Below are positions 24,890 through 29,036 of a DNA stretch of 64,000 bases, one piece after another. The translations under genes and the position numbers were made by a program. The notes under the pieces were generated by a model that ran no database searches, was not told where the DNA came from, and was given only the letters and a program-made list of their open reading frames with translations. This DNA is from Halomonas sp. GTDB lineage: Bacteria; Pseudomonadota; Gammaproteobacteria; Pseudomonadales; Halomonadaceae. Location of the stretch: the NCBI RefSeq assembly GCF_052095765.1, contig NZ_JBQDJZ010000001.1, forward strand, positions 11,090-75,089. The letters are read 5' to 3'. Numbering within the stretch: position 1 is the stretch's first letter; each line of letters opens with the position of its first letter.

Positions 24890-26431
24890 ATGGGAAGCCG
24901 AGTGAAATACAAGGATCTGCGTGACTTTATCGCGGCGTTGGAGGCGCGGAGAGAGCTCGTGCGCGTCACCGCTGAGGTCGATCCCTACCTTGAGATCACC
25001 GAGATCTGCGACCGCACCCTGCGCGCCGGTGGTCCGGCGTTGCTGTTCGAAAACGTCAAAGGCCATGACATGCCGCTGCTGGGCAACCTGTTCGGTACGC
25101 CGAAGCGGGTAGCGTTGGGCATGGGACAAGAGTCGGTCGGGGCGCTTCGTGAGGTGGGCGAATTGCTGGCGTTTCTCAAGGAGCCGGAGCCACCTAAGGG
25201 CTTTCGCGATGCCATGGACAAGCTGCCGATCTATCGACAGGTAATGAGCATGAGCCCCAAGGTACTGCGCCGCGCGCCAGTACAAGAGGTCGTGCTGGAA
25301 GGCGATGACGTCGATCTGGACCGGCTGCCGATTCAGCACTGCTGGCCCGGCGATGCCGCGCCACTGGTGACCTGGCCGCTGGTGATCACTCGTGGTCCTC
25401 ACAAGAAGCGTCAGAACTTGGGTATCTATCGACAGCAGAAGTTGACGAAGAACCGCCTGATCATGCGCTGGTTGTCCCATCGCGGTGGGGCGCTGGACTA
25501 TCAGGAGTTCCGCCGTCTACATCCCGAGCAGCCCTATCCGGTAGCTGTAGCTCTGGGCGCTGATCCGGCGACCATTCTCGGTGCCGTCACGCCAGTGCCG
25601 GACAGCCTTTCTGAATACGCCTTTGCTGGCTTGCTGCGCGGCTCACGCACTGAACTGGTGCGTTGTGGCCATGTGGATCTGGACGTGCCGGCGTCTGCCG
25701 AAATCATCCTCGAGGGCTTTATCTACCCCGACGATACCGCGCCAGAAGGGCCTTATGGTGATCACACCGGCTACTATAACGAGATTGAAGAGTTTCCGGT
25801 GTTTACCGTGACCCGCATGACCATGCGCCGCGACGCCATCTATCACTCGACCTATACCGGGCGGCCGCCGGATGAGCCCGCGGTGCTGGGCTTGGCGCTC
25901 AATGAAGTCTTCGTGCCCATTCTGCGCCGTCAGTTTCCCGAGATCGTCGACTTCTATCTGCCCCCCGAAGGCTGCTCCTACCGCATGGCGGTGGTGACCA
26001 TGAAAAAGCAGTATCCCGGCCATGCCAAGCGGGTGATGATGGGCGTGTGGAGTTTCCTGCGTCAGTTCATGTACACCAAGTTCGTGGTGGTATGTGATGA
26101 CGACATCAATGCGCGTGATTGGAAGGATGTGATTTGGGCGATCACGACGCGCATGGATCCAGCCCGGGACACCCTGTTGGTCGAGCATACGCCCATCGAC
26201 TACTTGGACTTTGCCTCACCCACGGCGGGGCTTGGTTCCAAGATGGGCATGGACGCCACCAACAAGTGGCCTGGCGAAACCGACCGTGAATGGGGCGAGC
26301 CCATCGTGATGGATGAAGCGGTCACAGCCCGGGTAACGCAGCGCTGGGACGAACTGGGTATTGATCTGGGTCCAGCGGAACAAACCGGCACCAGCTCGGC
26401 TCTGGTCGAAAACAATAGGAGCGACACATGA
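24890..26431 (+). CDS. ubiD: 4-hydroxy-3-polyprenylbenzoate decarboxylase
   Basis: [36 protein letters not shown]; start may be GTG 24902. Confidence 0.97.
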
Positions 26432-27198
26432 GTTCATGCACCCTGACCTGCCGGGTGGCTGAAGTGGAAGATCTGACGTCTGATGTCATGGGCGTGCGCC
26501 TGGAAGGGCGTTCTGAGGCCATGGTTCATGAAGCCGGCCAGTATCTTGAGCTTAAGCTCGATGAGGACACCTGGGTGCCGTTCTCGATTGCTAGTGCACC
26601 CAGCGGTGATGGTGTACTGGAGCTTCACATCCAGCATTGGCCAGAGCGCCGCAACACCGCACGGTTGCGTGAGATGCTGATTGAGGCGCGCCAGGTGATG
26701 GTGCACTTGCCGGGGGGGGACTGTTTACTTGACCCCGACAGCCGTCGGCCGCTGCTGCTGGTGGGTGCCGGTACCGGCTACGCGCAGATGAAAGCGTTGG
26801 CCGAAGCGGCGCTGCGTGAAGACCCCCAACGTCGTATCGAACTTTGGTGGGCGGCTCGTGAGCGGCGCGACCTGTATCTGGAATCGCTGCCACGCGAGTG
26901 GGCGGCGCAGTATCCTGGCGTACACTTTCACGGTGTCAGCGAACTTGGTATGCACGCCGATTTTGATGATGAGGCGGTAACGGGACATCAGGGGCGGATT
27001 GATCAGGCGCTGGCAAGTCAGCTCGATGATGTGTCGGCTTATGATGTCTATCTGTGCGGGTCGCCGGGCATGGTGTATGCCTGTGTCGATGTGCTCGCTT
27101 CGTTGGGCCTACGTCCGAACCGGGTATTTTCCGATGTGTTTGCCTATGCCCCGCGTGACCCGCTGGTGCCAGTGGTAGGAAATCTTTCCAGAAAATAG
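26428..27198 (+). CDS. fre: NAD(P)H-flavin reductase (Fre/UbiB-type)
   Basis: [31 protein letters not shown]; typical ubiD neighbour. Confidence 0.85.
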
Positions 27199-27312
27199 GG
27201 TTAAGGTTAAAGCAGAGGATAATGCGGCTGCAGACTTCCATTAACGTCGCTCAGCGGGCATTATATCCGCATAATATTCCGTTTCAGCCTGATGATCATG
27301 AGGGAAATAACG

Positions 27313-27438
27313 ATGGCAGAACACAATGTCTCACAAGACAGCACCGGCATCATGATGGTTGTGCTATTTCTGCTGGCGCTGGTTTTCCTGGCATGTGCGC
27401 CAGCCGTCGCCAGGTTATACGTGTTACTCGGCGCCTGA
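27313..27438 (+). CDS. Putative 41-aa single-TM small protein
   Basis: MAEHNVSQDSTGIMMVVLFLLALVFLACAPAVARLYVLLGA*, RBS-like GAGGGA upstream; below the ORF-track cutoff. Confidence 0.5.
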   Translation: MAEHNVSQDSTGIMMVVLFLLALVFLACAPAVARLYVLLGA

Positions 27439-27464
27439 TCAGCAGTGAACACAGGAGAAGCCTT

Positions 27465-27602
27465 GTGAGACCAGACCGTTCCATGATCAACATGCTGTCC
27501 CATCCGGACGTTCACCGTTCGGGTGAGGGCGTGTGTTCCACATTGTCTGGTTATTGGTATGGCAACGACTTTAGCGCCGGTGTGCCGGCGGCCCTGTCCT
27601 GA
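27465..27602 (+). CDS. Putative leader peptide 1 (45 aa, contains YWY..F)
   Basis: AGGAG 7 nt before GTG; VRPDRSMINMLSHPDVHRSGEGVCSTLSGYWYGNDFSAGVPAALS*; followed by attenuator-like hairpins. Confidence 0.45.
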   Translation: MRPDRSMINMLSHPDVHRSGEGVCSTLSGYWYGNDFSAGVPAALS

Positions 27603-27659
27603 TACATCACCAGGAACACTGAGGTCGAAAGGCACACCCGACAGGGTTGCCTCTCCCAG

Positions 27660-27700
27660 AACCCCCGGACGGCAACCCCGCCCGGGGGTTTTTGTTTGTT
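27660..27700 (+). terminator. Intrinsic terminator with competing antiterminator arm
   Basis: AACCCCCGGACGG-CAACC-CCGCCCGGGGGTT then TTTGTTTGTT; GGGTTGCC (27644-27651) is complementary to GGCAACCC (27671-27678). Confidence 0.75.
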
Positions 27701-27784
27701 GAGATTTTTATCGGGCGTTGTTTATCGAATACTGTTTAATGAATGACGGTAACATCAATGAATAGCATATCAAGGAGAGCAAAC

Positions 27785-27949
27785 ATGGCCGTAGCGTATA
27801 TTGTGTCTGACATCGAGTATCTGTCGGTGAGCACTTATTATTATTTCGGCTGGCGATTTAGCGACGCGCGGTCGGCTCACGTTGCCACCTCCGACCGTAG
27901 CACCTGTGGTGGCAAGACCCCCCACCGATGTAATCGCTCACGGAGATAA
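27785..27949 (+). CDS. Putative aromatic-amino-acid leader peptide 2 (54 aa, YYYFGWRF)
   Basis: AAGGAG RBS; MAVAYIVSDIEYLSVSTYYYFGWRFSDARSAHVATSDRSTCGGKTPHRCNRSRR*; TAA abuts the DAHP synthase RBS. Confidence 0.6.
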   Translation: MAVAYIVSDIEYLSVSTYYYFGWRFSDARSAHVATSDRSTCGGKTPHRCNRSRR

Positions 27950-27953
27950 CCCC

Positions 27954-29036
27954 ATGAATGCTTCTCTTACTGTGGCTTGCCAATCCAGTAAAACAACCCA
28001 CACAGCACGCCAGAGAACTGCTTCCGGTTTGCCGGTGTCCTTACCTGCTCCCGCTCAACTGCACCAGCGTCTGCCGGTGTCCGGCACACTTGCTGACCAG
28101 CTAGTGTCCCAGCGCCAGGCAATCCGCGATATTCTTGCCGGACACGATGACCGGTTGCTGGTCGTCGTGGGCCCTTGCTCGATTCATGATCCTACGTCGG
28201 CACTGGAATATGCCCAGCGGCTAGCGGAGCTGAGCGGAAAGATCAGCGATCGTATTCTGCCGGTGATGCGGGTCTATGTGGAAAAGCCACGCACTACGGT
28301 AGGTTGGAAAGGTCTTGCTTATGACCCAGCACTTGATGGCAGCGGCGATCTGGCGCGGGGAATCGAGCTCTCGCGGCGGCTAATGCGTGATGTCGCCATG
28401 CTTGGCCTGCCAGTGGCCACTGAACTGCTACAGCCGATGTTGGCGCCCTATCTCGATGATTTGTTGTCCTGGGTGGCCATCGGGGCGCGTACCACCGAGT
28501 CCCAGCCGCATCGCGAAATGGCCAGCGACTTGGCCGCGGTGGTGGGCTTCAAGAATGCCACCAGTGGAGACCTTCAGGTAGCGGTTGATGCCATGCAGGC
28601 GGCCGCCCATCCGCATCAGCACATTGCGCTTGGCTATGAAGGCTTGCCTGAAGTCAGACAGACCCGCGGAAATGCATATACCCACGTGGTGTTGCGTGGA
28701 GGACATGACGAGCCTAACTATCAAGCGCACTGGGTTTCCGCCGCCCGTAAGGTGCTGCTGGATGCCGGTCAGAACCCGCGGCTGATGGTCGACTGCAGTC
28801 ACGCTAACGCCCGCAAGGATCATCGTCGCCAGAGCGAGGTCATGCTCGATGTGCTGGCCCAGCGTGAAGCCGGCAATGCTGATCTGGTCGGGCTGATGCT
28901 GGAAAGTCACTTGAATGAAGGCAAGCAGCCACTGGTGCCGGGACAGCTGCGCCATGGTGTATCAGTGACCGATGCCTGCATCGGTTGGGAGACCACGGAG
29001 CATCTGCTGCTGAGTGCGGCGGAGCGGCTACGGTAA
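27954..29036 (+). CDS. 3-deoxy-7-phosphoheptulonate (DAHP) synthase, class I-alpha (AroF/G/H family)
   Basis: VVVGPCSIHD, YVEKPRTTVGWKG, IGARTTESQPHRE, GFKN, DCSHANARK, SVTDACIGW; ATG 27954 after GGAG. Confidence 0.97.
   Translation: MNASLTVACQSSKTTHTARQRTASGLPVSLPAPAQLHQRLPVSGTLADQLVSQRQAIRDILAGHDDRLLVVVGPCSIHDPTSALEYAQRLAELSGKISDRILPVMRVYVEKPRTTVGWKGLAYDPALDGSGDLARGIELSRRLMRDVAMLGLPVATELLQPMLAPYLDDLLSWVAIGARTTESQPHREMASDLAAVVGFKNATSGDLQVAVDAMQAAAHPHQHIALGYEGLPEVRQTRGNAYTHVVLRGGHDEPNYQAHWVSAARKVLLDAGQNPRLMVDCSHANARKDHRRQSEVMLDVLAQREAGNADLVGLMLESHLNEGKQPLVPGQLRHGVSVTDACIGWETTEHLLLSAAERLR

Follow-up and report, generated by a model that had tools for sequence, protein, structure and literature searches.

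A probable leader-peptide transcription attenuator upstream of a DAHP synthase gene in Halomonas and its relatives

How is the first step of aromatic amino-acid synthesis matched to the supply of aromatic amino acids in bacteria outside the well-studied models? 3-Deoxy-D-arabino-heptulosonate-7-phosphate (DAHP) synthase is the entry point of this synthesis; in the textbook organism the TyrR and TrpR repressors and feedback inhibition, and not attenuation, keep it in check. The question is raised by a stretch of 64,000 nucleotides (nt) from Halomonas sp. (contig NZ_JBQDJZ010000001.1, positions 11,090 to 75,089; hereafter the window), in which a non-coding stretch of 755 nt (27199-27953) precedes a class-I DAHP synthase gene and is home to a short open reading frame (ORF) rich in aromatic codons, here called leader 1, and an intrinsic terminator. 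We consider it probable, on support that is computational throughout, that leader 1 controls this gene as a ribosome-mediated (leader-peptide) transcription attenuator. The reading follows from a conserved ORF with Tyr, Trp and Phe codons, covarying helices, fixed synteny with DAHP synthase across several families, and the lack of room for a separate downstream promoter.

The coding features of the locus, in order along the DNA, are these:

27453-27457, + strand: Shine-Dalgarno (SD) motif AGGAG, 7 nt before the GTG start of leader 1.
27465-27602, + strand: leader-1 ORF, 45 codons and TGA (GTG 27465-67, TGA 27600-02), peptide MRPDRSMINMLSHPDVHRSGEGVCSTLSGYWYGNDFSAGVPAALS.
27552-27560, + strand: distal aromatic codons TAT-TGG-TAT (TAT 27552, TGG 27555, TAT 27558).
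27570-27572, + strand: Phe codon TTT, the best-placed sensor codon, with its first base 9 nt before RNA segment A.
27785-27949, + strand: leader-2 ORF, 54 amino acids, ..STYYYFGWRFS.. (STYYYFGWRFSDARS), with its stop TAA (27947-49) adjoining the SD of DAHP synthase.
27954-29036, + strand: class-I (AroF/G/H-type) DAHP synthase, 360 amino acids, from its ATG; the regulated gene.

A preliminary description of this DNA, made from its letters, had noted a GTG ORF 7 nt behind an AGGAG and carrying clustered TAT-TGG-TAT...TTT codons. We read the same elements at 27453-57, 27465 and 27552-72, the start that it implied being off by 1 nt. The TTG-TGA start-stop that it offered as another use of this ribosome-binding site does exist in the window (27463-68) and has no counterpart in relatives.

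We compared the whole intergenic region by BLAST with 60 related genomes, 36 of them of the same genus. It is matched in 34 of the 36 (the two without a match are 79-85% complete), and only two blocks are conserved: 27549-27692, from the aromatic codons through the terminator, and about 27842-27918, inside leader 2. At all 30 loci fetched we find the ORF, the aromatic cluster, the helices and the terminator, with an orthologous DAHP synthase downstream; the conservation of ORF and aromatic codons that the preliminary description had put forward as a check is thereby confirmed. ORF, SD and aromatic cluster are also kept in 22 loci of other genera and families. The predicted leader ORF has 40-52 codons and an SD-like motif at each of the 30 loci, starting with ATG in 28 and with GTG in the window and its closest relative (L002). 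The SD is mostly strong in relatives, commonly CAGGAGA at 5-7 nt before the ATG, and L002 has AAGGA before its GTG.

Conservation within the peptide is uneven. Across the 30 loci the N-terminal two thirds are variable and the C-terminal part is kept, namely the aromatic cluster, which holds Tyr, Trp and Phe in every leader, followed by (S/M/I)-x-G-V-P-A-A-x-S-stop; the window has the S-A-G-V-P-A-A-x-S-stop form. Its Y, W, Y and F all fall inside 7 codons, where YWY aligns with the distal YW cluster of relatives and the relatives' proximal Tyr-Trp is replaced by Asn-Asp (27564-69). The last Phe codon is TTT in 30/30 leaders, exactly 9 nt before the first base of segment A, whereas TTC is the commoner Phe codon (59%) in the window's long ORFs. 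The sequence TTTAGC recurs in leader 2 (TGGCGATTTAGC) and in all loci of the P15 type described below. In 28/30 loci the leader stop is found 21 nt past the first base of segment A; in the other two (L009:640-803 and L027:1487-1650) an indel near the end of the ORF shifts it to 36 and 24 nt, respectively, and both stops are TAG. Both loci retain the RNA helices despite the displaced stop, which suggests that conservation acts on the RNA and not on the end of the peptide.

For the 256-nt region the predicted folding energy is -111.8 kcal/mol (z = -4.65, 200 shuffles). Below, ON denotes the folds that lead to readthrough and OFF those that lead to termination; the RNA elements of the window are as follows:

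27567-27580, + strand: segment 1, the 5′ arm of the OFF helices OUT and H0, masked by a ribosome paused at Phe 27570.
27567-74 with 27619-26: helix OUT, OFF state, specific to the window and L002.
27575-80 with 27585-90: helix H0, OFF state.
27579-86, + strand: segment A, GGTGTGCC, with B the 5′ arm of P1.
27587-98, + strand: segment B; A and B are the last ORF codons, G-V-P-A-A-L-S.
27579-86 with 27631-38, and 27589-92 with 27624-27: helix P1, made of A:C (GGTGTGCC with GGCACACC) and an inner helix.
27595-27618, + strand: stop-codon hairpin, TCCTG (27596-600) with CAGGA (27610-14).
27630-27639, + strand: segment C, AGGCACACCC, partner of A (P1, ON path) or of D (C:D hairpin, OFF path).
27644-27652, + strand: segment D, GGGTTGCCT, partner of C (anti-antiterminator) or of E (antiterminator), and in the window complementary to B.
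27644-51 with 27671-78: antiterminator D:E, GGGTTGCC with GGCAACCC, 8 bp.
27660-27701, + strand: intrinsic terminator, stem AACCCCCGG (27660-68) with CCGGGGGTT (27682-90), inner CGG:CCG.
27689-27701: U tract TTTTTGTTTGTT, following the terminator stem.

The terminator has a 9-bp GC stem with segment E (GGCAACCC, 27671-78) as its apical part. A terminator scan of the region does pick this hairpin, although the count (2 found against 1.2 expected) is not above shuffles; its significance comes from conservation across genomes and not from the scan. D:E crosses the terminator stem (arms T5 and T3), so that both are impossible in one nested fold, and A:C crosses B:D, so that these two cannot coexist.

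Run on the 30 sequences, RNAalifold returned two elements, P1 and the terminator, in which 98.4% of cells are paired and 8 pairs have compensatory changes. None of 500 column shuffles attains any of five measures, and sliding the 3′ partners gives 33-54% pairing. In the 8-bp A:C helix one column pair (53/124) occurs as UA12/CG10/UG4, all four pairs of the inner helix (27589-92:27624-27) have compensatory changes, and the terminator has them at its stem base. Within the genus 95% of D:E cells pair, one pair being found as UA21/CG7/UG2; D:E is 92% paired across the 49 distinct sequences of a 51-sequence alignment spanning three families, where that pair is UA30/CG10/AU4/UG2. In two loci of another genus of the same family (L048 and L049; leader ends ..GYWYWFRNGHA or ..GYWFRDRHA), D:E is rewritten yet fully complementary, GUGCUGCC facing GGCAGCAC or GGCAGUAC in the terminator loop, and these loci are natural compensatory mutants for D:E. 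C:D is 94% paired with little variation. For the stop-codon hairpin, inspection of the relatives' sequences by eye shows counterparts of the GUCCUG/CAGGAC type, whose loop varies.

Three pairings proposed in the preliminary description recur here as conserved structures: the U-tailed terminator (27660-68:27682-90 with the U tract to 27701), the antiterminator (27644-51:27671-78) and the arms 27579-86:27631-38, which are A:C of P1. A fourth, GGCCCTGTC (27590-98) with GACAGGGTT (27640-48), is present in the window but belongs to a 12-bp B:D helix (27587-98:27640-51) found in the window and L002. We rejected B:D as a conserved anti-antiterminator, since elsewhere it is reduced to a 7-bp core with one-sided G-U/G-C changes and has about zero probability in masked folds; segment B of the relatives pairs within P1 instead of with D.

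Is the gene transcribed through this terminator? The distance from the end of the terminator stem to the leader-2 ATG has a median of 49 nt (36-94) and is mostly 36-60 nt in relatives, and one promoter-like motif was noticed as conserved, CTTGCCA-N17-CA(G/C)GAT, which by eye lies about 20-60 nt 5′ of the leader-1 start in L003-L030. Given this short gap and this motif, DAHP synthase must be transcribed through the terminator in most relatives, and termination must therefore be conditional to make sense. The gene 5′ of the element differs from the window's in most relatives (at least 18/30 loci, by eye). The promoter motif is absent from the window and L002. Where it occurs, its spacer holds an inverted repeat that changes in sequence and keeps its symmetry (TGCCGCAATGCGGCA, CCGCCCCGCGAGGCGG, GCGCCGCGACACGGC), which could be an operator or a hairpin ending the upstream gene. 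On sequence grounds, then, the conserved ORF, covarying helices and fixed synteny support the architecture of ribosome-mediated attenuation 5′ of DAHP synthase that the preliminary description had recognized.

Related elements are already catalogued under another heading. No Rfam family matches the leader-1 region at its gathering threshold; by E-value the best match is RF00627 (P15), covering 27548-27688 with 24.0 bits (E 0.01), where the gathering score is 70. P15 was predicted as a small RNA (sRNA) of P. aeruginosa and confirmed by northern blot as a species of ~180 nt, present in both the exponential and the stationary phase; a gene of 1092 bp lies 221 nt downstream of it (PMC1524904, Livny et al. 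2006). Rfam and PMC1524904 present it as a small RNA of unknown function, without a leader ORF. A search with RF00627 through 301 genomes from the order and 400 from the class returned 11 matches above threshold, plus weaker ones. Every match of at least 27 bits (L031-L049, L052-54, L062) lies 150-450 nt 5′ of a DAHP synthase that is 56-75% identical to the window's. These P15-type loci, from Pseudomonas-like and other families, have a leader ORF (..FYFGYWFSHWRA-stop; for example ..VSFYFGYWFSHWRA-TGA) with a Tyr/Trp/Phe-rich cluster, the same terminator, and then a second ORF with YYRY..WRFS; common to them are TGGTTTAGC and the terminator. Weak matches with no DAHP synthase nearby (L050, L051, L055-58, L063) were taken as false positives.

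The window's element resembles P15 in the G-Y-W-F-S codon core of most Halomonas-type leaders, the C:D hairpin, the terminator AACCCCCGG..CCGGGGGUU and the second leader. Helix 2 of the Rfam P15 structure (C:D) and the terminator align with the window, whereas helix 1, which pairs the aromatic codons with the stop-codon region, is non-canonical or gapped and not formed there; the Halomonas type has a long P1 from the G-V-P-A-A codons. Judged by sequence, leader 1 is a diverged homologue of P15 that falls below Rfam's own threshold. In a full-text literature search neither P15 nor a gammaproteobacterial DAHP synthase leader was called a leader-peptide attenuator, a search that leaves subscription papers outside and a prior description possible.

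The P15 record also supplies the best-surviving alternative, that the element is an independent sRNA gene, or a small-protein gene, with a constitutive terminator and a trans role or none on its neighbour, DAHP synthase having its own promoter. Rfam indeed lists the homologous Pseudomonas element as a gene or sRNA whose function is unknown, the ~180-nt RNA is a discrete species in both growth phases (PMC1524904), and the window has 94 nt of AT-rich DNA between terminator and leader 2 that could hold a promoter. However, relatives usually have only 36-60 nt between the terminator and the leader-2 ATG, and the element always stands 5′ of DAHP synthase while its upstream neighbour changes. D:E, which would be useless to a constitutive terminator, is conserved and covaries. 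The P15 band also matches the look that a terminated attenuator transcript would have, and such a transcript would give the same band. We therefore regard an independent gene as unlikely; the RNA may have a trans role in addition to attenuation.

If leader 1 is an attenuator, transcription would start 5′ of the 45-codon ORF and the RNA would pass through a chain of mutually exclusive helices: segment 1 with A/B (H0/OUT), A/B with C (P1), C with D, D with E, and finally the terminator with E as its apex. When charged aromatic tRNA is scarce, the ribosome would pause on the codons just 5′ of P1 (Phe TTT 27570 in the window, Tyr-Trp-Phe in most relatives). It would then cover segment 1 and leave A free, so that P1 forms and locks C away; D, still single-stranded when E emerges, would pair with E, and the terminator could not nucleate, giving readthrough into leader 2 and DAHP synthase. 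A ribosome in the last seven codons or at the stop would instead cover A/B, allowing C:D to form once D is made and leaving E free for the terminator. Termination near 27692-27701 would release a short RNA like the Pseudomonas 'sRNA P15'. An untranslated transcript of the window would take the OFF path as well, with H0 as the helix responsible. Changing D from GGGTTGCC to GGCAAGCC would be expected to give OFF, and a matching change in E to restore ON.

Which ribosome position favors which fold? We computed masked equilibrium folds of complete transcripts and then folds at the moment when D emerges, moving the ribosomal A site codon by codon in 30 species. By reach we mean how many nt past the first base of its A-site codon the ribosome covers. 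The fold for each ribosome position and the kinetic nature of the choice are predictions of nearest-neighbor models without pseudoknots, in which path barriers are heuristic. At the emergence of D the predicted helices were as follows:

A site on Tyr (15 nt before A): P1 in 24-26/30, C:D in 3-5/30.
A site on Trp (12 nt before A): P1 in 29/30, C:D in 0/30, with D unpaired in 30/30.
A site on Phe (9 nt before A), reach at most 9 nt: P1 in 26-29/30, C:D in 0-2/30.
A site on Phe, reach at least 11 nt: P1 in 0-2/30, C:D in 20-29/30.
A site on any later codon or the stop: P1 in 0/30, C:D in 29-30/30.

On the direction of the switch, which the preliminary description had left open, the models thus predict that a pause on the proximal aromatic codons leads to readthrough and a run to the stop leads to termination. 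The flip holds for any assumed reach from 7 to 13 nt with Tyr and from 7 to 12 nt with Trp, and the aromatic cluster is predicted to extend exactly as far as a ribosome can pause without disrupting P1. A reach of at most 9 nt is judged realistic from work on frameshift-stimulating structures. We discarded equilibrium folding of complete masked transcripts as a test of direction, the terminator winning in every state. With the terminator as the ground state throughout, the decision should be taken earlier and held kinetically. In a transcript ending at E, D:E forms in 25-29/30 irrespective of ribosome state, and the median path barriers are 13.8 kcal/mol from C:D to D:E and 20.5 kcal/mol from D:E to the terminator (heuristic values), so that the first-formed helix should persist during the ~1 s of transcription.

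For the window itself, the outcome is predicted to turn on 27567-78. With these bases free (no ribosome, or a pause on YWY) the OFF fold, consisting of OUT, H0 and C:D, has -40.4 kcal/mol against -34.3 for ON; with them covered (Phe 27570 in the A site, ribosome edge at 27578) ON (A:C) has -32.9 kcal/mol against -27.9 for OFF. In these models the window is a clean thermodynamic switch on bases 27567-78, and Phe 27570 is the only codon that appears well placed as its sensor. The preliminary description had taken the Tyr, Trp and Phe codons together as the sensor, which for the window holds in the models for Phe 27570 and fails for YWY, predicted to be ineffective there.

Several observations weigh against attenuation as set out above. 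Full-length equilibrium folds give the terminator at any ribosome position (25-30/30). The Phe outcome depends on the assumed reach, ON at no more than 9 nt and OFF from 11 nt, and untranslated RNA is predicted ON in 22/30 relatives. A pause at YWY is predicted not to flip the switch in the window, where the cluster lies too far upstream. As for the helices, H0 is 84% paired in relatives with covariation no better than shuffles, for which we dropped it as a conserved segment-1 helix, and D:E has a central mismatch in half of the sequences. D:E also captures the apex of the terminator and not its 5′ arm, and pairing of T5 with T3 around it is disfavored by steric reasoning only. The U tract is poor (GGGGGTTCTGCGTTTC or similar) in 29 same-genus relatives, while it is strong in the window and in Pseudomonas-type loci. 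Finally, we recognized no promoter 5′ of leader 1 on the + strand of the window between the upstream gene fre and leader 1.

Some of these points would suit a switch of opposite or non-specific logic, either a general coupling of translation to transcription or termination upon an aromatic pause (superattenuation): equilibrium folding favors the antiterminator in no state, pauses at YWY in the window and at Phe with a long reach are predicted OFF, and untranslated RNA is mostly predicted ON in relatives. A non-specific sensor, however, would leave unexplained why all three aromatic residues occur in 30/30 leaders, why the 3′ end of the cluster is fixed 9 nt before P1, and why P15-type leaders likewise carry a Tyr/Trp/Phe-rich cluster. 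Opposite logic would lower DAHP synthase expression on aromatic starvation, which is physiologically senseless. This alternative, next in probability, is thus improbable as well.

Across families the G-Y-W-F-S core hardly varies, even in its nucleotides, and the stop is UGA in most leaders, which could point to a TnaC-like arrest of the nascent peptide by free aromatic amino acids, with the arrested ribosome at the ORF end setting the fold. Yet the residues between core and stop differ completely by family (SAGVPAALS, SHWRA, SRSSA, SRYGV), and the window lacks the core (YWYGNDFS). A ribosome at the stop is moreover predicted to cause termination, a repression that charged-tRNA sensing already gives. 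Systems of the TnaC type have a peptide conserved up to its stop and no intrinsic terminator, whereas leader 1 is not conserved in this way and has a terminator that is intrinsic, not Rho-dependent; we find such an arrest very unlikely. That the hairpin merely ends an upstream ubiD-fre unit and the aromatic ORF arose by chance would fit the absence of a promoter-like site on the + strand between fre and leader 1 and the regional terminator count, but is scarcely credible given the different upstream gene in most relatives (at least 18/30, by eye), mostly with a promoter-like motif before the leader ORF, and the recurrence of ORF, SD and aromatic cluster in 30/30 genus genomes and 22 loci of other genera and families.

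As an attenuator, leader 1 can be compared with known systems. The enterobacterial trpL and pheL leaders, and above all hisL with its multi-segment chain, combine a short ORF holding codons for the end product with exclusive helices, and starvation leads to readthrough. Leader 1 resembles them in its end-product codons, in a helix chain leading to an intrinsic terminator and in a fold that is predicted to be selected by ribosome position. It differs in its mixed Tyr/Trp/Phe codons and in serving the first enzyme, which all branches share, and not one of the terminal branches, and its type of ORF has 40-52 codons compared with 14-32. In the Halomonas type the sensor codons stand just 5′ of the first big helix and not inside it, and the antiterminator takes the apex of the terminator and not its 5′ arm; a tandem second aromatic leader follows.

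A precedent at the same enzyme is known from an actinobacterium. In the C. glutamicum aroR-aroF region, a leader peptide with Phe-Tyr-Phe precedes DAHP synthase (Neshat et al. 2014, as reported in PMC11802643), and ribosome stalling under Phe limitation is described as raising transcription, Tyr supply being without effect (PMC11802643). We treat this precedent as non-homologous, and the relevant passages of PMC11802643 report neither a Trp codon nor a tandem second leader. Tandem short ORFs are also described in the Salmonella mgtCBR leader, where the relevant passages of PMC3641672 concern other signals and genes, with no homology; unlike in that account, both ORFs here carry the same kind of codon and the second extends to the SD of DAHP synthase.

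Leader 2 has a strong SD (AAGGAGAG, 27772-79) and is kept in 30/30 loci as (D)YYGYGWRFS; between its stop and the ATG of DAHP synthase the distance is 5-11 nt. Alternative helices (CGGTCGG/CCGACCG and GCCACC/GGTGGC) lie 3′ of its aromatic codons, and no U-tailed terminator was found after these codons. Leader 2 would be transcribed only through readthrough of the leader-1 terminator, and it probably adds control at the level of translation. In Sinorhizobium, the trp attenuator RNA rnTrpL acts in trans. One can thus picture leader 1/P15 as the first stage, an apex-capturing attenuator, of an unrecognized two-stage aromatic sensor in several gammaproteobacterial families (Halomonas- and Pseudomonas-like), with an ORF ending on the DAHP synthase SD as the second stage, the terminated RNA also acting in trans, and, in the window, leader 1 reading Phe only and leader 2 Tyr, Phe and Trp. 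Taken as a whole we consider this scheme speculative and rather doubtful.

The mechanism is classical, and what is gained is annotation and one variant of attenuator design, with no new principle: an ordinary kind of regulator in a little-described place, the first half of a tandem aromatic leader pair. If the models hold, the element would put the first aromatic step of a group of Gammaproteobacteria under a leader peptide that reads three aromatic amino acids together, and would assign a function to a small RNA that Rfam has listed without a known role since 2006. It is a short cis element, and production strains of Halomonas and Pseudomonas that lack it should have a deregulated aromatic flux; it may also offer a compact natural means of sensing how far aromatic tRNAs are charged.

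The regulated enzyme is assigned by NCBIfam NF009395 (483 bits, cut-off 343) and TIGR00034 (424 bits). The same genome encodes a second class-I DAHP synthase on another contig (C66:13838-14821, L061; 51% identity), and its upstream region of ~300 nt has no aromatic leader ORF or terminator; its opposite-strand neighbor resembles an extracytoplasmic function (ECF) sigma factor. Upstream of leader 1 the window contains:

24890-26431: ubiD, preceding fre.
26428-27198: NAD(P)H-flavin-reductase-like gene (fre), directly 5′ of the 755-nt intergenic stretch.
27313-27438: hydrophobic ORF of 41 codons, MAEHNVSQDSTGIMMVVLFLLALVFLACAPAVARLYVLLGA, with SD GAGGGA, directly 5′ of leader 1.

The neighbors of the locus are ubiD, fre, DAHP synthase and hemB, with no peptide-maturation genes among them. 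The string ..TLSGYWYGNDF.. had prompted us to consider a precursor of a ribosomally synthesized and post-translationally modified peptide (RiPP) or of a lasso peptide, an idea rejected in view of these neighbors, the missing maturation genes and the unconserved N-terminus. The 41-codon hydrophobic ORF is common to the window and L002, has no NCBIfam match and did not turn up in the sequence 5′ of leader 1 at the other 28 loci. The sole match of the window at an Rfam gathering threshold is the t44 RNA (RF00127), at 2345-2440 on the + strand with 74.7 bits.

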